Shown here in pieces: positions 3,316 to 59,071 of a stretch of DNA of 64,000 nt (position 1 is its first letter; every line of letters starts with the position of its first letter). A program made the translations under genes and the position numbers. The stretch lies in the NCBI RefSeq assembly GCF_056712565.1, contig NZ_CM160072.1; one strand, given 5' to 3'. The notes under the pieces were generated by a model. The model ran no database searches, had not been told where the DNA came from, and saw only the letters and a list, made by a program, of their open reading frames with translations.

Positions 3316-4003
3316 TCGGAGCAAATTTTTGAATAACGTTGCTCAGGCACTGGGGCGCCCGCTGCGACTTGAACCGCAAGCAGAAGATGCGCCGCTTAAC
3401 AACTATGCTAACGAGCGGCTTACCCAACTTACCCAACAGCAGCGCTGTGACGCGTTTATCCAGTTTGCCAGCGATGTTATGTTGACGCGCTGTGAACTGA
3501 CCAGCGAGGCGAAGGCGGCAGAAGCTGCAATACGTCTGTGTAAAGAGCTGGGAGATCAGTCGGTCGTGATTAGTGGTGACACGAGGCTGGAGGAATTGGG
3601 GATTAGCGAACGTTTGCAGCAGGAATGCAATGCCGTTGTTTGGGATCCGGCGAAAGGTATTGAGAACATATCACAAGCAGAGCAGGCTAAAGTGGGCGTC
3701 GTATATGCTGAATATGGTTTAACCGAATCGGGAGGCGTGGTTCTTTTTTCCGCCGCCGGGCGCGGGCGTTCATTGAGCCTGCTCCCGGAATCTTCTCTTT
3801 TTATCCTGCGTAAAAGCACAATCCTGCCGCGTGTAGCGCAACTCGCAGAAAAATTGCATCAGAAAGCGCAGGCCGGTGAACGAATGCCGTCATGTATTAA
3901 CATCATCAGTGGTCCCAGTTCAACGGCGGACATTGAGCTTATCAAAGTCGTCGGGGTTCATGGTCCGGTGAAAGCGGTGTATCTGATTATTGAGGATTGC
4001 TGA
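3308..4003 (+). CDS. ykgG: LutC-like protein (YkgG)
   Basis: In-frame ATG at 3308 overlapping the ykgF stop gives 231 aa (MDNRSKF...), the expected size; the longer ORF from 3155 is an upstream extension inside ykgF. Confidence 0.85.
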   Translation: MDNRSKFLNNVAQALGRPLRLEPQAEDAPLNNYANERLTQLTQQQRCDAFIQFASDVMLTRCELTSEAKAAEAAIRLCKELGDQSVVISGDTRLEELGISERLQQECNAVVWDPAKGIENISQAEQAKVGVVYAEYGLTESGGVVLFSAAGRGRSLSLLPESSLFILRKSTILPRVAQLAEKLHQKAQAGERMPSCINIISGPSSTADIELIKVVGVHGPVKAVYLIIEDC

Positions 4004-4245
4004 GAGAGATATGTAGTCTGGACATAAACCTGAAGGCGGTATACGAGGTTGTGAATAGCGTTAAGGACAACCTGACTTAACCCCGTTCCGTCATGGTTAT
4101 GCAGCTCTTCTGTAAATATCCTGACATTAATAATGCCAGGATATTTACAGTTAAAAAGACAGGAATCCATTCCTGAAGACGGGCTCCCTTCCCGGTCACT
4201 GTCACTATAGTTTTATACAGGCACTCTCTGTCAGAATGCTGTTTA

Positions 4246-4914
4246 TTACTGCCCAGAGTTTTGTTGGTATTCATCTACCATTTTTTTGACAAGGCAAAAC
4301 ATCACAGAAATCACAATACTTAGAAAAAATCCCAGAGCCAGGCAAATGGCAGCAGGGTATTTATTTTTTATTTCTGGTGAGCTTATAGTGACACAGCCAT
4401 CACCGTTCGGATACAGTGACCAGTTCCTGGTCAGGTATATCATTTTTGTATAAAGCTCACTGTTAATTGCTGAAGGCGTTTGTATCTCATCGAGAACTTG
4501 CCTGCCATTATGGTATTCTGACGCATACCATTTGATGATAGACGCCTGCACGCGAGATATTTCCGCTTCAGCAGTTGGTAAATCTCTCTTATTTCCTGAC
4601 CATTCCAGCTTTATTTCTCTGTTCTTGACATCTGGGCTGGTCTGAAAAAATGTAGTAATTCGCTGAATAACATCTTCAGTCATTGTGGTCTGACAGGCAA
4701 AGTTATTATTGCTATCACAGCTAACAAGTATGCCTGGTGTTGTCTGGTTTATTTTTAGACTGTAAGTCACTTTTATATTATCTTTATTGATATACAGAAA
4801 CAACAGCACCATTACCATACAGATAGCTATAATAAAAAGGATAACACGAATCTTTTTCTTCAGATAAAATAAAATCTCAATCAGATCGATATCCTGTTTG
4901 ATTTGTTCATTCAT
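4246..4914 (-). CDS. ykgH: Predicted inner-membrane protein YkgH
   Basis: 222-aa ORF with an N-terminal hydrophobic segment; position after ykgG matches K-12. Confidence 0.85.
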   Translation of the reverse strand: MNEQIKQDIDLIEILFYLKKKIRVILFIIAICMVMVLLFLYINKDNIKVTYSLKINQTTPGILVSCDSNNNFACQTTMTEDVIQRITTFFQTSPDVKNREIKLEWSGNKRDLPTAEAEISRVQASIIKWYASEYHNGRQVLDEIQTPSAINSELYTKMIYLTRNWSLYPNGDGCVTISSPEIKNKYPAAICLALGFFLSIVISVMFCLVKKMVDEYQQNSGQ

Positions 4915-5097
4915 AATATATCCAGAAAATGAAATCTGTCGCAGATAAGATTGTATTAATAGTCTGTATCAGGAATGTTCAGGGTAAATATCAGCAAAAA
5001 GCCAGCATCATGAATACTGGATATTTATAGCCTGCAGGCAGCATACTGCTGCCTGCAGGGGGTATAACAGTCGACAGGGGAACCGACTGCTTTATTC

Positions 5098-7395
5098 TTA
5101 CCAGGTCACATTGATACCAACTACACCCTGTAGCGGGTTCTCAATGTCGTCACCTTTGGTGTAGTCAAGGCTTGCATATGCTCCCATGTTTTTGGTGATA
5201 TCAGCCTGTACACCTGCACCCACGCGGAATGCTGCACCGTCAATGCTGGCATTGACAGACTCATCACCCAGACGGACTTTGTTGCCATCAGAGAATTCGT
5301 TCAGTGCGGCCAGATTCAGATAAGGTTTAACGGTCGCGTTGCCCACAGCGAAGTCATAACCCACGCGCGTACCGGCCTCACCCAGCACAGAGTTATAGCT
5401 GTCAGAATGAACGTCCACGCCGTTGAGTTGATAATCCACACCTTCCAGAGTCAGAGCAGACAGTTTGGCATATGGCTGAATAAACAGGCCATTACCGTCT
5501 TTCCATGTGTAACCGCCTTTAACCATCGCACCAAAACCATTGGTGTTAAAGTCAGCTTTGATGGTACCGCCACCATTCATCAGGCGAACATCTGCCGTGT
5601 TGCTGTAGTGACCAAACTGTGCAGCAGTATCAATGAAGATACCGTTGTTATACTGGCGGCTCAGGTAAGCGTGGAAGCTGTAACCTTCAGTGTCACCTTT
5701 GCTCTGCATGGTAGTCATGTCACCTTTCGCAGAAGACATCGCCACACCGGCCAGCCAGCTACCATCTTCAGTCATGAAGCGGGTATCACCACCCAGCATT
5801 ACACCATTTACATCCAGGTCATAGGATGCATTTCCCGCGGTGGTATGTTTCTGTTTACCGCCAAAGTACTGAATCCATACGCCACCCTTGTCATTTTCGC
5901 TCAGACGGACAGCATCCTGACGGGCGGAGAGCGTGTCAGCCTGCAGATTAGCGACGTTAGCCGGAGCAGCTGCCATTGCCTGAATCACGGAGCTGGCGTT
6001 GGATGCTTTATGCGTGTTTTTTACGAAATAAAAGTTACCATCAGCTCCCTGTGTCAGGTCATATTGATACAGACCACCTTCCGTTGTGCCTGTGGCTTTT
6101 AGAGTGCTGTCTTTGCCGGTAGAAATAAATGCCGTTTGTTCATTGATAAGATCCAATGAACCCGCACTGTAAACACGCAAGTCACCGCTCGCTTTACCGC
6201 TGATATCCAGAGTGTTTTCAGAAGAGGCATCAACAATCAGAGTGCCGTTTTGAGAAGCAAACGTGCCAGTATTGACTGTAGCCTTCGTGATATTAACCGT
6301 ACTGTCTTTTACTGCCAGAGCATCAACAGTTGAGGAACCCGTAACATTCCAGACAGACCCGTTTTGCAGAGATACACTGGCATCTCCTGCCCCTGAAACT
6401 TTGCCTTTCCAGACTGAACTATCGGAAAGATTTATATCCAGATCACTACCCGCTTTATCGCCGCTATTGAAGGTATAAGCATTACCTTCCCAGTAAGAGC
6501 GGGCAACGTTCATATTTACATTTGTTGTGGTACTGGCTGAATTCTCGCTTTCAGAAAGGGCCAGGACATCAGAGTAGATGGTTGAATCAGCAACAGACAA
6601 ATTTAAATTTTGCGTTGCTGAACCTGCGCCTTGTGCCGAAGCAGAGGCATAAATTGTTTGTTTATTATTAGCCGCCCCAATTACTGAGCCATCCTTAATA
6701 TTCAGGTTGACTGTATGAATTCCCGTCTTATTCCCGGCAGTAACTATTGTTTCAATCCCGCCATTAATAATATTTGAGTCAGCAAGGGTGATGTTGTCGG
6801 TTGCATCACCGTCAAAACCCTGCAACAAATTACCCTTTTGAGCAAAAATTGCCGTAGAGCCGTTGCTGTAACTCTTATTACCTTGAGCATTTATGGTTGT
6901 ACCATTGAGCGTTAAATTATTTCCCGTGGTCGCTTCCAGAGATATCCCTGTCGCACTACCTTTTTCATTTTTTGCAACGAAATTACCGCCATTAACAACA
7001 ACATCGCCAGTTGAATCAATGACCATTGCAGTCCGGACATAGGTGCCTTCACCTTGAGCTGTGATGGTGGAGTCTGTAGCATTAATCACAACATTTTTGT
7101 TACCACTAACTTTTACACCTTCAACGAAATCTTGGTTTACCGTTGATGCGGCGGTAATATCGTGACCGCCAAAAGTAACATTAAGGTCTTTATCTGAATC
7201 TGACGTTTCAATTGTTACGGCTGTAATCTTGTTATCACCGTTAATAACAACATCTTGATCCAGAGTCGTCTTCTCTGTATTCAGCGTAACCGGATCAGTT
7301 GATACCGTGCTATCAGTAGCGAATGCTGGTGCAGAAAGAGCCATAACAATAGCTGTCGCTAATGCGCTGCGGTAAAATGCCTTACTGTTTTTCAT
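5098..7395 (-). CDS. upaE: Type Va autotransporter: signal peptide, N/T/G/S-rich beta-helix-like passenger, C-terminal beta-barrel ending in W. Possibly UpaE
   Basis: Long ORF; start chosen at MKNSKAF (7395), which has a GGAG motif 9 nt upstream and a classical signal peptide; passenger is rich in short N/T/G repeats; C-terminal roughly 280 aa is barrel-like and ends GINVTW. Symbol by locus architecture from memory, not alignment. Confidence 0.7.
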   Translation of the reverse strand: MKNSKAFYRSALATAIVMALSAPAFATDSTVSTDPVTLNTEKTTLDQDVVINGDNKITAVTIETSDSDKDLNVTFGGHDITAASTVNQDFVEGVKVSGNKNVVINATDSTITAQGEGTYVRTAMVIDSTGDVVVNGGNFVAKNEKGSATGISLEATTGNNLTLNGTTINAQGNKSYSNGSTAIFAQKGNLLQGFDGDATDNITLADSNIINGGIETIVTAGNKTGIHTVNLNIKDGSVIGAANNKQTIYASASAQGAGSATQNLNLSVADSTIYSDVLALSESENSASTTTNVNMNVARSYWEGNAYTFNSGDKAGSDLDINLSDSSVWKGKVSGAGDASVSLQNGSVWNVTGSSTVDALAVKDSTVNITKATVNTGTFASQNGTLIVDASSENTLDISGKASGDLRVYSAGSLDLINEQTAFISTGKDSTLKATGTTEGGLYQYDLTQGADGNFYFVKNTHKASNASSVIQAMAAAPANVANLQADTLSARQDAVRLSENDKGGVWIQYFGGKQKHTTAGNASYDLDVNGVMLGGDTRFMTEDGSWLAGVAMSSAKGDMTTMQSKGDTEGYSFHAYLSRQYNNGIFIDTAAQFGHYSNTADVRLMNGGGTIKADFNTNGFGAMVKGGYTWKDGNGLFIQPYAKLSALTLEGVDYQLNGVDVHSDSYNSVLGEAGTRVGYDFAVGNATVKPYLNLAALNEFSDGNKVRLGDESVNASIDGAAFRVGAGVQADITKNMGAYASLDYTKGDDIENPLQGVVGINVTW

Positions 7396-8351: not shown

Positions 8352-9146
8352 TCATAACAATCCTGGTCTTTTTTTAGATATATTTTTTCTTTGTCCGGAA
8401 AGTACTTTTCCGGAAATGGCGTCAGAATTTATTGATTCACCAACGGCAACTTTCTCTGGATAAAGGATTCCGGATACCATGTTCTGCACATACTGAGTGA
8501 GTCGATGAGCGGAATGTTGTCCGATATATTTTGCATGTAGCCGTATATTCCGTTTCACTCTGCTGTCACCGCATCCCGTATAGAGCAGCCTGAAATCGCT
8601 CAGTGTTCCCAGTCCAAGTTTCATTAAAGCCCGTGTGGCAATCGCATGCAGGGTCTTTGAACTGCGTTGTTCATAACGGGCAATCTCACTGAAACTCATG
8701 CCCTGCATCAGAATCTTAAGCACGCTCAACTCCCGTGCAGTCAGGAGCCAGAAATCGCTCATATCGCCGGGCAAAGGACGTAGTAACCAGCGGATAATTT
8801 GATTCTGATAACGACTCGCTGTCAGCATGGTGCCGATGCGTGGGAAGCCGTTATACAGACTTGCAGCAGGAGCATTATCGAACCAGTCGGAGTCACCGGT
8901 CAGGCAGACCTGCCATTGCCCGGCATCACTCCGCAAACGGGCGAGACAAGCCAGAAGAACCAACTCCCCCGAAGGAAGCGAAGGGATATCAGCTAACAGG
9001 TAGCCACAGGAGGTCTTTAAAACGAATTCAACCTCTGTAGTGACGTTGCTGTACACCCGCACGATATACCTGTCCGTTGGGATGAGAGACTCCAGTGCCA
9101 GCCTGGTGAACTGACAGGCACTGATAATAACCAGAGGCTTCTTCAT
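8352..9146 (-). CDS. ipuR: LuxR/GerE-family transcriptional regulator, possibly IpuR
   Basis: 264-aa ORF; clear LuxR-type HTH (LTARELSVLKILMQGMSFSEIARYEQRSSKTLHAIATRALMKLGL); first gene downstream of the candidate invertible element. Symbol by architecture only. Confidence 0.65.
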   Translation of the reverse strand: MKKPLVIISACQFTRLALESLIPTDRYIVRVYSNVTTEVEFVLKTSCGYLLADIPSLPSGELVLLACLARLRSDAGQWQVCLTGDSDWFDNAPAASLYNGFPRIGTMLTASRYQNQIIRWLLRPLPGDMSDFWLLTARELSVLKILMQGMSFSEIARYEQRSSKTLHAIATRALMKLGLGTLSDFRLLYTGCGDSRVKRNIRLHAKYIGQHSAHRLTQYVQNMVSGILYPEKVAVGESINSDAISGKVLSGQRKNISKKRPGLL

Positions 9147-9172: not shown

Positions 9173-9465
9173 AAACCTGACATTTTGATTCAAAATGTCA
9201 GGTTTGGTTTAATAGCCTGAATATTTAATTTTCTTGGAATATAAATCTGATTTGTTTGATTTTTATTGTTTTTAATTTTGTATTATTTAACAATATGGGC
9301 GAAAGTTAATCACTGGTATGACCTTTGTGATTAATCATTTCAAATCATGGGGTTATTTTACTTTAGCTAGAAATATCAACATGTTATGTGTTTTATTTAA
9401 TTGAATGGGCTGTTTTTTTATGGAAGAATTGAGGAAAACGTAGGAATCTGACATTTTGAATCAGA
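9173..9465. promoter_or_regulatory. Candidate invertible promoter switch: 12-bp perfect inverted repeats (tcaaaatgtcag at 9190-9201, ctgacattttga at 9448-9459) flank a 246-bp AT-rich segment; a 33-bp perfect palindrome spans 9173-9205
   Basis: Repeats read directly from the sequence; element sits between the recombinase stop (9476) and the LuxR gene start (9146), the same layout as fimE-fimS-fimA. Confidence 0.6.
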
Positions 9466-9475
9466 AGGTACTGTT

Positions 9476-10039
9476 TTAACGAGGCTTTTTTTTCCACACC
9501 CCTTTAAAACGAGCAGCATTACTGGCTGTGTATCTGACAGTATGCTGAATATTTCGATGACCCAGGTAATCCTGAAGTAGTCGGGTATCGACACCATTGT
9601 CAGCCAGAGCAAAACCACAGGCATGACGTAACATATGAGGATGTGCTTTTACAGCTAATCCTGCACGTTTTCCAGCCTCACGAATGATAGAAAAAAAATG
9701 TTGTCTGCTGATAGGGCGGCGTTTCCGGGAGAGAAAAAGCCAGTCTCCTTCAACTCCGTTTTCAATTAACTTCCTCTGCTTAAGCCACAACTTGATCAAA
9801 TTATATTCATCAGGAAGAAGAGGATGTGTTGTCGAGAAACCATTTTTAATACGCCGAATATTAAGTTGTTTTCCAGATGCATCAATATCGGATAAACGTA
9901 AATCAAGAAGTTCACTGGCCCTAAAACCGTGAATGAAAGCCATCATAATCAGACAGCGATTTCTTTCAGGAAAGGACATGCTCTGGGCTGCATCCATCAG
10001 CCTGTAGACTTCATCCTGTGTGAGATATTTTCTCGTCAT
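9476..10039 (-). CDS. ipuA: FimB/FimE-family tyrosine site-specific recombinase, possibly IpuA
   Basis: About 187-200 aa with FimB-like motifs (HGFRASE, GFSTTHPLL, HPHMLRH, CGFALA, DTRLLQDYLGHRNIQHTVRYTASNA); no fimbrial genes adjacent. ATG at 10039 preferred; alternative GTG at 10078. Confidence 0.8.
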   Translation of the reverse strand: MTRKYLTQDEVYRLMDAAQSMSFPERNRCLIMMAFIHGFRASELLDLRLSDIDASGKQLNIRRIKNGFSTTHPLLPDEYNLIKLWLKQRKLIENGVEGDWLFLSRKRRPISRQHFFSIIREAGKRAGLAVKAHPHMLRHACGFALADNGVDTRLLQDYLGHRNIQHTVRYTASNAARFKGVWKKKPR

Positions 10040-11108
10040 ACGCCACCGTGTACAGTTGTAAAAAAAAGAGAGGCACACCCAGATAAGTATGCCTGCAATC
10101 AGAACGTTATCGATGTAATCTCATTATCTCATTAATAAGATTTTTTGAATAGTAGTTCTACGCAACAGATTAAATATGAACTATTTATTGTGCAGCTTTT
10201 CTACAAGTCATTTTTAATGCGTGTTTTTATCTACTATAATGTGAAAAAAATAAATATTAAAACTATGAGTGACAGGTCGTGTGGGATGTGTATTACGTCT
10301 AATGCTTTAGTAATTTTTTATTATTTCTGAGATATTTAACATCATTTCCTGTGAGATTGTCTTGTTGTGTATCTAATTGATTTTAATTTTGTTTTTTTTG
10401 ATGCATAAATTTGGATGATAGAAAGTAAGATTAGCTTAATATCAATGATATGAATTTATAAATACATATTGTTGCAAGGTGTTCTTTACTTTTTTGGTCG
10501 TTAGTAAATCATTGTTAATGGGTTCTGTTCATAAATTAAAAATATTCATTTAAATGATTTTTACTTTTTGTATATCTCAATTTGTTTATTTTGCATTCAT
10601 TTGATGGAGAGTATTCCAACACTTTTTATTTTTCGCAAAAAACTTATTAACAACTTTTTATTATCAATTGAAAATTAATGTAAACTAAAATGTTAGCGAA
10701 GCGATAATCTTGTGCTAAAAAATATTTAAGCATGATGATTAATTAAAGAAGAGTAAAAATAAATCGCTGCTAATAAATTATACGAACCGTGTTTAAAGCT
10801 CCATGTGGTTTTGGTCTGACTTATTTTTGTACTCGTTACAAGAACCCTTTTCGTACATGCTAACCGTGAGCGGGAATGAACAGGTAACCATAGCCAGGAA
10901 CATTAGCGGCGTAATTCTTAAGCTGAGTGGTATTTCATCTGTAGTTTATCTGTGTATGCATAGCACCTTCATCAGCCAGATTGAGCAAGTCAGCTTAGAA
11001 TTTGCTGGTGAGATTGTCACGATGAAGCATGAGAGTTACCTCAGTGTTTTATATAAGGATTCGGTCCTCATAGTAGAACGGTAACTCTCAATCTGATAGG
11101 TTCCTGAG

Positions 11109-53946: not shown

Positions 53947-54780
53947 TCAACGCATATTCAGTTTATTGGCGTGGTACGCAATATGCTCGCCAATAAAACT
54001 GGAGACAAAATAATAGCTGTGATCATAACCCTCGTGATAACGGATTAACGTCTTGATATTCATCTCCTGGCAGATCTTTTCAAGATTTGGAGTCCGCAGC
54101 TGTTCTGCGTAAAAATCATCACTCAATCCCTGATCAACCATGATTTCCGCAACGCGTTGACCTTGTGAAATAAGACTCACCGGGTCGTAATCCAACCAGG
54201 CATCTTTATTTTCACCAAGATATGCGGCAAAGGCTTGCTGTCCCCACGGTACTTGCGATGGGGAGACAATGGGCGAAAACGCCGAGACGCTGACATATTC
54301 ATCTGGGTTACGTAACGCCAGCACCAGCGCGCCCAGCCCGCCCATAGAATGACCTGAGATAGACTTTCTGGCCGTTGCTGGAAAATGATGCATCACTAAA
54401 TTCGGCAGCTCGTTGCGGATATAGTCATACATTTTGTAATGTTCATTCCACGGCGCTTGCGTCGCGTTCAGGTAAAACCCGGCACCTTGCCCGAGATCGT
54501 AACGGTCAGCATCTGCGACATGACTGCCTCGCGGACTGGTGTCCGGCGCAACAACAATAATGTTGTGCTCAGCCGCGTAACGCTGCATCCCCGATTTAGT
54601 AATGAAATTCTGCTCGTTGCAGGTCAGGCCTGAAAGCCAGTACAACACCGGCAATTTTTCATTCTCGGCTTTTGGTGGGAGATAGACGCCGACATTCATT
54701 TCACATTTCAGTGATTGGGAATAATGCCGATACACATTTTGCCAGCCGCCAAAGCTGGCATGTTTTTCAATGAGTTCCAT
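53947..54780 (-). CDS. frmB: S-formylglutathione hydrolase FrmB
   Basis: 277 aa esterase with GHSMGG serine motif. Confidence 0.95.
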   Translation of the reverse strand: MELIEKHASFGGWQNVYRHYSQSLKCEMNVGVYLPPKAENEKLPVLYWLSGLTCNEQNFITKSGMQRYAAEHNIIVVAPDTSPRGSHVADADRYDLGQGAGFYLNATQAPWNEHYKMYDYIRNELPNLVMHHFPATARKSISGHSMGGLGALVLALRNPDEYVSVSAFSPIVSPSQVPWGQQAFAAYLGENKDAWLDYDPVSLISQGQRVAEIMVDQGLSDDFYAEQLRTPNLEKICQEMNIKTLIRYHEGYDHSYYFVSSFIGEHIAYHANKLNMR

Positions 54781-54872
54781 CAGTCATTATCTCACGGTTA
54801 ATCCCCCGGACGGCTGCCCGGGGAGAGTATTAAGAACCCCATCTGAACTGGACGGGGTAAACCAGCGGGAAA

Positions 54873-56012
<1,140 letters not shown>

Positions 56013-56016
56013 TCAG

Positions 56017-56292
56017 CTATTTAAGATAGGCACGAACCAGTTCAATAGTGTCGTCAACGGATTGGCTGACTTCGCGGCTGTAGCAGTCATTTCGGTCAAA
56101 CGTTTCCCGGATATGGCTTTCAAGCACTTCTGCCATCAGTCCGTTAGCCGCGCCCCGAACGGCAGCGATCTGTTGGAGTATGGCACGGCATTCGGCATCA
56201 CCCTCCAGCGACCGTTCCAGAGCATCAATCTGCCCCCGAATACGACGAACTCGAGTAAGGACCTTTTTCTTCTCTTCCGGAGTACTGGGCAT
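56017..56292 (-). CDS. frmR: Formaldehyde-responsive repressor FrmR (CsoR/RcnR family)
   Basis: 91 aa from [29 protein letters not shown]. Confidence 0.95.
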
Positions 56293-56316
56293 TTCGCACC
56301 TCATCATCTGCACGCA

Positions 56317-56369
56317 ATATACTATAGGGGGGTATGCTATATGTCAATGCATACCCCCCTATAGTATAT
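56317..56369. promoter_or_regulatory. frmRAB operator: perfect 21-bp inverted repeats carrying G6/C6 tracts
   Basis: atatactataggggggtatgc (56317-56337) and its exact reverse complement (56349-56369), 25 bp upstream of the frmR start. Confidence 0.8.
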
Positions 56370-56480
56370 AACACTGGAGAATAAAATTTATCCGGTGAAT
56401 GTAGTCGGAAAACAAAGAGGAAAGGGGATAGGGGCTAATCGGCAGGGAAGGCCGCCCCGGATAGCGGGCGGCAGAAGGAA

Positions 56481-57254
56481 TCAGAATTTCCAGGTCAGAT
56501 GGGCTGCAAGTTGCAGACCGTTATAATCATCGGTTGGGGTGTCGTACCACACTTTACCTGCCGTCAACCCGAGATTAAGTTGCTCAGTCAGCGGTTGAAT
56601 ACGTTGCAAACTGATGCTCTTCATGCTGCCGTAGCGTGTTTCTGGCGTCCAGTCGTAGGTGTAAGCACCTGTTCCGCGGCTTAGCCATAGTTGCGTGTAA
56701 CCAGTGCCGCGCGGGTCATTCAGACGCACGGAAATCATATTGCTGTAACTACCACCTGCATCGCTGGAGTCATAATGGGTATAGCGATAGCTGGTGATCA
56801 CCGGGCCAGTATAGAGTGATATGCCACCTTGCCAGGCATCGACTTCGACATCATCGTAATATTTAGTGTAGCGATAACCGGTCGTGAAAAGCGTTTTTGG
56901 CAACAGGGCCAGGTTAATATCCTGACGAAAATCCTGGCGGGCAAAGACCGGCGTATTATCCGCAAAGGCAATACCCGTTCGGGTTGTCAGCCAGTTATTC
57001 CATTTGTACCAGACTGCACCCTGGCCGCGAGTGGCATTGAAATGTTCAGTTTCATAATCACGACGCCCCTGGGAAAGATTAAAAAGCAGCGTTGCGTTTT
57101 CAACTTTCGCCACCAGTTCAGCATACGCTAAATTACGGTTGCCATGATCGCCAGAATAATCGGTAAAATCGTAGCCCGCGGTAATGGAAGTTAACCCGGC
57201 ATAAACGGGTAATGCGCTAAAAATTGCCGCCGCTAATAACGTCCGTTTTATCAT
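56481..57254 (-). CDS. yaiO: Outer-membrane beta-barrel protein YaiO
   Basis: 257 aa with signal peptide; ends with aromatic residue (WKF). Confidence 0.9.
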   Translation of the reverse strand: MIKRTLLAAAIFSALPVYAGLTSITAGYDFTDYSGDHGNRNLAYAELVAKVENATLLFNLSQGRRDYETEHFNATRGQGAVWYKWNNWLTTRTGIAFADNTPVFARQDFRQDINLALLPKTLFTTGYRYTKYYDDVEVDAWQGGISLYTGPVITSYRYTHYDSSDAGGSYSNMISVRLNDPRGTGYTQLWLSRGTGAYTYDWTPETRYGSMKSISLQRIQPLTEQLNLGLTAGKVWYDTPTDDYNGLQLAAHLTWKF

Positions 57255-57255
57255 T

Positions 57256-57948
57256 TTAATCTCCTGTACGGATAAGTTCTTGTCGGAGTGAATAAGTTCC
57301 GGTAGGTAAATTACGTTCTACAATCACGCGCGGGCCAAGTTGCGTGTTCGGGGAAATAATTCGCCCAGGCAAAATAATAACTTGTACGCCAAGGCGTGAA
57401 CGCTGCCCGATATAACAACCTAATTTATCGCATCCGGTAGCGATAATTCCATCTGGAGTTCGAACAGACACGGGCTGTTCATCCAGACGATGATTACTGG
57501 TTCGTACTTGTGCGCCCAAATATGCCTGGTTTGCAACTACCGAGTCGGCAATAAAGCATTGCGGACCAATCGTGGCTTCCGCTTCAATAACCGCATTTTT
57601 AATTTCGGTGGCAAAACCAATTCTTACGCCATTGCTGATTATTGTGCCAGGACGAATAAACGCATAATTACCTATTAGGCAGTTTGCGCCAATCACTACC
57701 GGACCCTGAATAACGGCACCGTGGCAAATACGGGTATTCGCGCCGATAACAACCTCACCGGCACTTTCATCAATAATCACCTGGTCTGCAATCTGAATAT
57801 TTTTCTCTTTAACATTAAGCTTCAGATAGTTTTTCAGTTCCTGTGACAGAAGGGTGGGAATAAGCGGTTGACACTTCCACCAGTGCGGAATAGCGGGTGG
57901 GTTTGTCGCGCTGAGGTTCGCGTCCAGTAAAAAAGGCAATAAGTCCAT
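57256..57948 (-). CDS. yaiX: Hexapeptide-repeat acyl/acetyltransferase YaiX, apparently intact; start uncertain
   Basis: Left-handed beta-helix repeats; any ATG start (57948 or 57966) overlaps the yaiP 3' end by more than 130 bp. Confidence 0.65.
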   Translation of the reverse strand: MDLLPFLLDANLSATNPPAIPHWWKCQPLIPTLLSQELKNYLKLNVKEKNIQIADQVIIDESAGEVVIGANTRICHGAVIQGPVVIGANCLIGNYAFIRPGTIISNGVRIGFATEIKNAVIEAEATIGPQCFIADSVVANQAYLGAQVRTSNHRLDEQPVSVRTPDGIIATGCDKLGCYIGQRSRLGVQVIILPGRIISPNTQLGPRVIVERNLPTGTYSLRQELIRTGD

Positions 57949-59071
57949 AAATAATCCAGATGGCATAAGCTAATAATACATACACAACGGAAAGCGGTGC
58001 TAAAGGCACCAACAACCAGCAACGATGAAACCAGGCGCTAAATGCACCAATAACACAAACTACGCCGACCCAGATAAGCGGGAACATTGCCAACACCACA
58101 CCATGTGGCCCGGTGGTGATGAATTCATTAAACCAGGTAGTGAGATAAATACCAACGCCATAAAGCACAACCAACAGCATAGGAAATATACTGAAGATAC
58201 CGAAGCGGCTAAATAAAAGTCTTTTATGCAGGCGCATACAGACCGCGTAGCCCACAATCCAACGCCGCCAGCGGCGCCACTCCTCACGCGGACTGTTACA
58301 TTCCTGTGGGTATACGATGCAGCGATTCGCCTGCCGAATACGGTAGCCGTTTGCCACCAATGTCCAGGTGAGATCAAGGTCTTCGACTTTAGTACGATCC
58401 GAGAAACCGAACTTACGCAATACATCAGTACGGAACATCCCGCAGGCACCGCTGATGATAAACGGTGCGCCGCCCAGAAGCTGCTGTAGCGTGCGCTTCA
58501 TAACAATCATCGGCAACTTTACGGTCGCGCGGATGTGTAGCTGCTGTAGCGTGCGCTTCATAACAATCATCGGCAACTTTACGGTCGCGCGGATGTGTGG
58601 TAACAGACCCGCGCCTTTCAACGCAGTAGAGGGAATGCCGCCTACGGCATCAGCGCCACGCTCAATTTCCGCCAGCATATAGCCCATTCCGTCTTGATCG
58701 GGCGGAACATAGGTGTCGGCATCACTTAAAAAAACCTGATCGCAGGTGGCGTAATTGAGGCCATTCATCAGCGCACCACCTTTACCGGTATTTTTTTGCG
58801 TGACGGCAACAAAGCGGTCGCCCCATTTGCGTTTGACTTCCGCCATGACCGCTTCGGTATTGTCCATGGAGCCGTCGTTAACGCAAATTACCCGGCAAAA
58901 ATAAGGGTTACGCAGCAGATTATCCAGTGACTGCGCCAGACACGGGCCTTCGTTATAAGCAGGTATAATGGCGTCAATACAGCCTTTCTTTTGGCTGGGC
59001 TTACGCCTTAACGTACTCAGAAACCATAGCAATATTGCTACGGCCATACATATAAAGATCCAGGTTTTCAT
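57815..59071 (-). CDS. yaiP: Family-2 glycosyltransferase YaiP, carrying an in-frame 20-aa tandem duplication
   Basis: 418 aa (398 expected without the duplication); glycosyltransferase-like N-terminus, C-terminal membrane segments. Confidence 0.85.
   Translation of the reverse strand: MKTWIFICMAVAILLWFLSTLRRKPSQKKGCIDAIIPAYNEGPCLAQSLDNLLRNPYFCRVICVNDGSMDNTEAVMAEVKRKWGDRFVAVTQKNTGKGGALMNGLNYATCDQVFLSDADTYVPPDQDGMGYMLAEIERGADAVGGIPSTALKGAGLLPHIRATVKLPMIVMKRTLQQLHIRATVKLPMIVMKRTLQQLLGGAPFIISGACGMFRTDVLRKFGFSDRTKVEDLDLTWTLVANGYRIRQANRCIVYPQECNSPREEWRRWRRWIVGYAVCMRLHKRLLFSRFGIFSIFPMLLVVLYGVGIYLTTWFNEFITTGPHGVVLAMFPLIWVGVVCVIGAFSAWFHRCWLLVPLAPLSVVYVLLAYAIWIIYGLIAFFTGREPQRDKPTRYSALVEVSTAYSHPSVTGTEKLSEA
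58481..58600. repeat. Tandem duplication of a 60-bp unit (units differ at 1 position) inside yaiP
   Basis: ctgctgtagcgtgcgcttcataacaatcatcggcaactttacggtcgcgcggatgtgt occurs twice consecutively. Confidence 0.9.

Follow-up and report, generated by a model that had tools for sequence, protein, structure and literature searches.

A long palindrome upstream of frmR in Escherichia coli as a probable double FrmR operator interleaved with the frmRAB promoter

Introduction

The window analysed here, by which we mean the whole 64,000-nucleotide stretch of DNA, carries a long perfect palindrome immediately upstream of frmR. The question it raises is what such extensive symmetry is for: does the palindrome act as one long operator, as a pair of repressor sites, or as a structure in RNA or DNA to which repressor binding is incidental? 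A sequence-only reading of the window had taken it for a G-tract-containing operator of the kind used by CsoR/RcnR-family repressors. This identification is borne out: frmR begins 25 bp downstream, and the same inverted repeat of the frm promoter (Pfrm), drawn as tandem sites, appears in Figure 6a of Denby et al. (2016; Sci Rep 6:38879, PMC5146963). We put at about 0.92 the probability that the palindrome serves the frmRAB formaldehyde-detoxification operon as its operator-promoter and is made up of two complete type I sites at which FrmR occupancy would block the promoter. The element is already known (Denby et al., 2016) and is a well-understood regulatory site, in which there is nothing new to biology; the proposal that it could serve as a positive control for regulatory-site calling held good, in that the scan picked out an operator with published experimental support.

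The frmR locus

Over this region the DNA of the window is 100% identical to that of E. coli ATCC 11775, from whose RefSeq annotation the coordinates of frmR (56017..56292, minus strand) were taken. Annotation, NCBIfam match and identity to K-12 agree that the gene encodes a formaldehyde-responsive repressor of the CsoR/RcnR family (DUF156): its ORF scores 189 bits against the NCBIfam FrmR equivalog (cut-off 133) and 68 bits against the RcnR model, under that model's cut-off, and its product is 100% identical to K-12 FrmR, with Pro2, Cys35 and His60 all present. Located 3' of frmR on the same strand, according to the ORF list and the ATCC 11775 annotation, are the regulated detoxification genes frmA (54873-55982) and frmB/fghA (53947-54780), which together span 53947..55982. 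A Shine-Dalgarno-like GAGGTG, read directly from the sequence, precedes the frmR ATG at 56297..56302 (minus strand) and is unchanged throughout the Escherichia alignment.

Upstream of frmR, and on the same strand, lies yaiO, which ends 112 nt before the palindrome. Its stop codon is followed by a G+C-rich hairpin (56449-56475, GCCGCCCGCTATCCGGGGCGGC on the minus strand) that has no T-run and drew no terminator call; between yaiO and the frm promoter there is thus no obvious intrinsic terminator. Polymorphism is seen in the yaiO-frmR spacer at about 56424-56434, which reads CCCCTATCCCC here as against an unbroken run of about 10 C in K-12 MG1655. Further differences are seen in the adjoining genes. 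The acetyltransferase gene yaiX, next to yaiO, is an intact ORF here (57256-57966) and a pseudogene split by IS2A in K-12 MG1655 (comparison locus 3845-5873). The gene yaiP holds a perfect 60-bp tandem duplication (58479-58598; 2.0 copies, 100% match), which gives rise to an in-frame 20-residue repeat (HIRATVKLPMIVMKRTLQQL twice). This stretch matches most E. coli genomes in two pieces, and just 419 records fall in the band of at least 99% identity; since the two-piece match spans 181 bp rather than 241 bp, most E. coli lack the duplication.

Geometry of the inverted repeat

The palindrome occupies 56317..56369 and comprises 53 bp: two arms of 21 nt at 56317-56337 (ATATACTATAGGGGGGTATGC) and 56349-56369 (GCATACCCCCCTATAGTATAT), and an 11-nt spacer between them (TATATGTCAAT). 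A repeat finder and our own script concur in complementarity of 100% between the arms, and locate one tract in each arm, G6 at 56327-56332 and C6 at 56354-56359, just as the sequence-only reading had described them. The arms are exactly 21 nt long because the bases just outside them, 56316 and 56370, are both A. Read on the minus strand, in the direction of frmR, the order is GTT, ATATACTATAGGGGGGTATGC, ATTGACATATA, GCATACCCCCCTATAGTATAT, TGCGTGCAGATGATGAGGTGCGAA and ATG; the edge of the near arm falls at -25, leaving 24 nt between arm and start codon, in line with the 25 bp first reported.

Among perfect inverted repeats with a spacer of at most 40 nt, this is the longest in the window. When the window was shuffled 40 times the longest such repeats reached only 9-12 nt, a result that excludes a chance origin for arms of 21 nt; by a rough calculation, ~6e-7 repeats with arms at least that long would be expected per window (64000 x 41 x 0.25^21). 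The runner-up in the window has 16-nt arms and a 1-nt spacer (9173-9205, AACCTGACATTTTGA t TCAAAATGTCAGGTT) and is flanked by two ORFs of the minus strand, 9476-10078 and 8352-9146; as TTTTG comes next on that strand, it is possibly a terminator.

Two type I sites and an interleaved predicted promoter

Type I sites of the CsoR/RcnR family are defined by a G/C tract of 3-8 bp with AT-rich inverted-repeat flanks (PMC5146963). Both arms have this constitution: their tracts are G6 and C6, and each tract is flanked by ATAC and GTAT. They lie in the promoter of an operon encoding a DUF156 repressor, with frmR 24 nt downstream and the promoter hexamers interleaved with them, and sites of the same pattern recur at the matching position upstream of frmR homologues (61/79). 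Each arm has its own internal 17-bp dyad, ATAC-N9-GTAT, of which the exact pattern is matched in the window only twice, once per arm. On the frmR coding strand the frmR-proximal type I FrmR site reads ATACCCCCCTATAGTAT (56319..56335, minus strand) and shares bases with the -10 hexamer; the frmR-distal one reads ATACTATAGGGGGGTAT (56351..56367, minus strand) and ends shortly before the -35 element. The two are inverted relative to each other, with 32 bp between their centres. Judged by its sequence, each 21-bp arm is therefore a complete 17-bp site and not a half-site of one operator.

The predicted sigma-70 -35 hexamer, TTGACA (56342..56347, minus strand), falls within the 11-nt spacer of the palindrome, and the predicted -10 region (56319..56326, minus strand) falls inside the proximal site. 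The latter can be read in two ways: as TAGTAT (56324..56319), at a spacing of 17 nt from the -35 element, or as TATAGT (56326..56321), at 15 nt. A scan of 56000-56600 with a sigma-70-like consensus returned a single promoter, TTGACA-17-TAGTAT, which by itself is not significant (1 match against 0.8 expected). Two further lines of evidence support a promoter at these positions (56342-56347 and 56319-56326) beyond the scan: genomic SELEX with the RpoD holoenzyme assigned a constitutive promoter, TTGACA-15-TATAGT, to the frmR-yaiO spacer (PMC3946193), and TTG(AC) is found 2-3 nt past the distal core in 14/14 of the two-site loci compared. In loci where the sites are 34 bp apart, TATAGT is, by our own reading, 17 nt from TTGAC.

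Transcription is predicted to start at 56311..56314 (minus strand), 6-8 nt past the -10 hexamer. Denby et al. (2016) placed the centre of the repeat at -29 relative to their predicted start (PMC5146963); as the centre is at 56343, this would put the start at 56314. We found no experimentally mapped frmR start site in the accessible literature, in which the published start is termed 'predicted'.

Experimental evidence from characterized operators

The behaviour of these sites has been studied in several systems. Among them, K-12 Pfrm is this very element at this very locus, and it does not differ from the window in either 17-bp core, in the -35 hexamer or in the spacer. Denby et al. (2016) saw in the E. 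coli Pfrm repeat a pair of CsoR/RcnR-family type I sites (ATAC-N9-GTAT) and stated a distance of 31 bp between site centres where we measure 32 (PMC5146963). K-12 FrmR binds Pfrm with a Kd of ~220 nM, as against ~3600 nM for unrelated DNA, and is freed from Pfrm DNA by formaldehyde; in vitro transcription from Pfrm is repressed by FrmR and this repression is relieved by formaldehyde, which cross-links Pro2 of FrmR to Cys35 with release of the protein (PMC5146963). As FrmR is 100% identical and both 17-bp cores are identical to K-12, these experiments transfer directly to the window. Two differences are nonetheless seen in K-12 MG1655: a G>A change just 3' of the -10 hexamer, and GAATAC in place of the GCATAC of the window strain at the inner end of the proximal arm, as a result of which the K-12 repeat consists of 19 perfect bases, one mismatch and one matching base.

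The frmRA operator of Salmonella Typhimurium (frmRAPro), whose locus we retrieved by the exact FrmR sequence, has the same 17-bp core, ATACCCCCCTATAGTAT, as the proximal site. This 17-mer is contained in the 33-mer probe TTCTGATAGTATACCCCCCTATAGTATATGGAG of Osman et al. (2015; supplementary Table S1), which matches 20/21 of the arm bases and binds FrmR as two tetramers with K ~1e-7 M (PMC4528141). The C6 tract of frmRAPro lies within a T/A-rich inverted repeat that is needed for binding, mutation of one of the flanking repeats having abolished FrmR binding (Osman et al., 2016; PMC5016687); Figure 2D of the same study aligns the E. coli and Salmonella promoters. The Salmonella operator differs from that of E. 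coli in being a single site, 13 nt before the ATG, and the region upstream of Salmonella frmRA has no second ATAC-N9-GTAT and no TTGACA nearby. Its FrmR is just 53% identical to that of the window, and the operon is without frmB.

The paralogous DUF156 repressor RcnR offers a comparison from within E. coli. The rcnR-rcnA operator (TACTGGGGGGNAGTA, tandem type I sites) has two sites, as does frm, and shares with the frm sites a TACT-N7-AGTA frame and a G-tract. The K-12 rcnR-rcnA spacer contains these as the direct repeats TACTGGGGGGTAGTA and TACTGGGGGGGAGTA, 20 bp from start to start, whereas the frm sites are inverted and 32 bp apart. Moreover, the G6-7 tract of the RcnR sites abuts TACT, that of the frm sites is offset by ATA/TAT, and the last base pair of the half-site in the E. 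coli frm sites (GGTAT) differs from that of the RcnR sites. An RcnR operator was accordingly rejected as an identity for the frm sites, at which TACTGGGGGGNAGTA has no match with up to two mismatches allowed.

The layout has also been rebuilt in a synthetic context. In a 2024 study two ATACN9GTAT sites were put into the promoter J23100, one 5' of the -35 and one over the -10 element, and conferred FrmR-dependent repression that was relieved by inducer (PMC11127321); this arrangement copies that of native Pfrm. The same study reports that a truncated native PfrmR in which both sites were kept lost repression (PMC11127321), which hints that flanking DNA also matters. According to a review, sort-seq of Pfrm identified critical repressor binding sites (Rohlhill 2017; ACS Synth Biol 6:1584). 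We found no base-resolution FrmR footprint on E. coli Pfrm in the accessible literature, in which binding was followed on whole Pfrm fragments. A 2026 study of formaldehyde-resistant clinical isolates reports nothing beyond changes in the FrmR coding sequence and frmA carried on plasmids, and nowhere uses the words 'promoter' or 'operator'.

Distribution of the sites across frmR loci

A survey of frmR homologues, with one genome per species, yielded 80 loci, of which 79 were scanned for the pattern. An exact ATAC-N9-GTAT was present within 200 nt upstream of the start codon in 61/79, its centre usually 20-43 nt before the ATG. The genera with such a site include Brucella/Ochrobactrum, Pseudorhodoferax, Xenophilus, Actinobacillus, Tatumella, Providencia, Edwardsiella, Aeromonas and Deefgea; the proximal site, together with its distance from the ATG, is conserved in alpha-, beta- and gamma-proteobacteria. 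The homologous sites have a C/G tract and an end, TATAGTAT, that doubles as a -10-like element. From 39 distinct frmR-proximal sites outside Escherichia (consensus ACATACTCCCCTATAGTATAT) we built a matrix on which both arms score 29.4 of a possible 33.3 bits, no other position on either strand of the 64 kb exceeding 11.6 bits; eight flank positions of this matrix are partly circular, having been used for picking the sites, and the inner positions are not.

The distal site has a narrower distribution: it is found mainly in Enterobacterales and also in Aeromonas and Deefgea-type loci. Where both sites are present their centres are 32-35 bp apart. Edwardsiella-type loci keep arms of 18-21 nt; in Erwinia and Deefgea the inner tracts are directly oriented, not inverted. 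Other genera thus tolerate arms that do not pair perfectly, spacings that differ and even sites in direct orientation. On this comparison the conserved functional unit is the 17-bp core; the long perfect palindrome is a form of the broader two-site layout that is specific to certain lineages. Across the inner N9 the arms of one locus are 0.73 identical and different loci 0.64; with 14 non-independent loci this difference is too weak for a claim of concerted evolution of the two arms.

Two groups of frmR upstream regions are near-identical across unlike genera, one from Citrobacter freundii, Klebsiella grimontii and Maribrevibacterium, in which the distal site is degenerate with N10 instead of N9, and the other from an Edwardsiella plasmid, an Enterobacter and Morganella. 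This near-identity suggests that frmR loci move horizontally along with their operators.

Variation within Escherichia

The exact 53-mer is present in 3554 of 5426 complete E. coli genomes (~65%), and a further 1578 have one or two changes. The median number of places occupied by the element in a genome is 1, and that place is always frmR (5415 genomes with a 108-bp query, 5134 with the 53-mer). In the Escherichia variants sampled, the inner arm ends are changed from GC to GA or TC, C6 is extended to C7, or the distal tract is altered; E. albertii has ACTCCCC in the proximal site as against GGGGGG in the distal one. The C7 in the proximal site occurs in some E. coli assemblies (G5, ETEC1716) and would alter the N9 spacing within the site as well as the distance from the -35 to the -10 hexamer; it may reflect genuine slippage in the homopolymer or a mistake in assembly.

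The description of the palindrome as perfect is hence correct for this strain but does not extend to the element in general, K-12 having a mismatch in one arm and the exact form being confined to 3554 of the 5426 genomes. Together with the direct sites of Erwinia and Deefgea, the K-12 mismatch and the ~65% share of the exact 53-mer establish that perfect 21-bp symmetry is not essential.

Alternative explanations

It could still be that the near-perfect 53-bp symmetry seen in most E. coli and in the cryptic Escherichia clades has been selected beyond what two independent sites call for: a single FrmR tetramer or a sandwich of tetramers might bridge the sites with the -35 element looped out, or a hairpin or cruciform might help to insulate the operon from yaiO read-through. 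Other genera tolerate imperfect, variably spaced and even direct sites. Our data are compatible with such selection but do not require it, and we regard it as unlikely.

A related explanation is that of a single symmetric operator, in which the 21-bp arms are the half-sites for one repressor assembly and the symmetry is itself functional. The perfect symmetry of the arms, here and in 3554/5426 E. coli genomes, and the 18-21-nt arms kept in Edwardsiella-type loci would be expected of such an operator, and Denby et al. speculated that one tetramer might bridge both sites, with both tetramer faces engaged (PMC5146963). However, each arm has an internal ATAC-N9-GTAT dyad of its own, and one site can suffice: Salmonella and most alpha- and beta-proteobacterial frmR loci are single-site, and the Salmonella site binds FrmR tightly. 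K-12 is fully regulated despite its arm mismatch, the spacing of the sites varies from 32 to 35 bp, the inner tracts are direct in Erwinia and Deefgea, and the arm-to-arm identity of 0.73 in the inner N9 is only slightly over the 0.64 between loci. With these observations against it, we consider a single operator of this kind very improbable.

The palindrome might alternatively act in RNA, as a hairpin in yaiO read-through transcripts that terminates, pauses or stabilises them and so insulates frmRAB. Compatible with this are the position of yaiO, on the same strand and 112 nt upstream, the failure to find a canonical terminator in 56000-56600, and the fold of the 21-bp stem as RNA (minimum free energy -44.7 kcal/mol, z-score -6.3); any perfect palindrome necessarily folds well, though, so that the fold gives no independent support. 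Against it, the stem is followed by UGCGUGC (TGCGTGC in the DNA) without a U-run, and a scan for intrinsic (Rho-independent) terminators returned 0 sites in 56000-56600, for which reason a terminator was rejected. Furthermore, the two-site layout tracks frmR, not yaiO, in genera with other upstream sequence, where the arms are often imperfect. A role as a read-through hairpin is accordingly scarcely plausible. Membership in an Rfam family was also rejected: the only matches are to eukaryotic miRNA-hairpin models, below threshold at 20-27 bits against gathering cut-offs of 73-139, and are generic hairpin artefacts.

An 11-nt spacer disfavours the extrusion of a cruciform. Despite a single-stranded DNA fold of -21.5 kcal/mol (z-score -7.3) and AT-rich lower stems, we give hardly any credence to a DNA cruciform or a remnant of a mobile or repetitive element at which FrmR binding is incidental, as the repeat lacks target duplications and further copies in the window, occurs at a median of 1 place per genome and always at frmR, where a repetitive extragenic or miniature mobile element would require dispersed copies, and is tied to FrmR by direct binding and transplant data (PMC5146963, PMC4528141, PMC11127321).

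Regulatory model and implications

Under the two-site reading, which we prefer, regulation may be pictured as follows. Without formaldehyde, tetrameric FrmR would be on both sites and would keep the sigma-70 RNA polymerase off the promoter: the proximal site would cover the promoter spacer and the -10 hexamer, and the distal site would abut the -35 element. From this placement over the -10 hexamer and spacer and against the -35 element we infer that RNA polymerase would be excluded. Formaldehyde then cross-links Pro2 to Cys35, upon which FrmR leaves the DNA and frmRAB is transcribed. With frmR at the head of the operon, the circuit would be autoregulated.

We likewise infer exactly which contacts the protein makes, how many tetramers sit on the double site, where transcription starts and that repression works by steric occlusion. 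One Salmonella site is enough to bind two tetramers, so between two and four could occupy the double site of E. coli. The 32-bp spacing of the sites is close to three helical turns, but the 34-35 bp found in other loci argues against strict helical phasing.

Searches of further genomes should look for the functional unit, the 17-bp ATAC(T)-N7-(A)GTAT core over the -10 hexamer, and not for the long palindrome. The distal site and the perfect symmetry are lineage-specific additions, a distinction relevant to the engineering of Pfrm-based formaldehyde biosensors.
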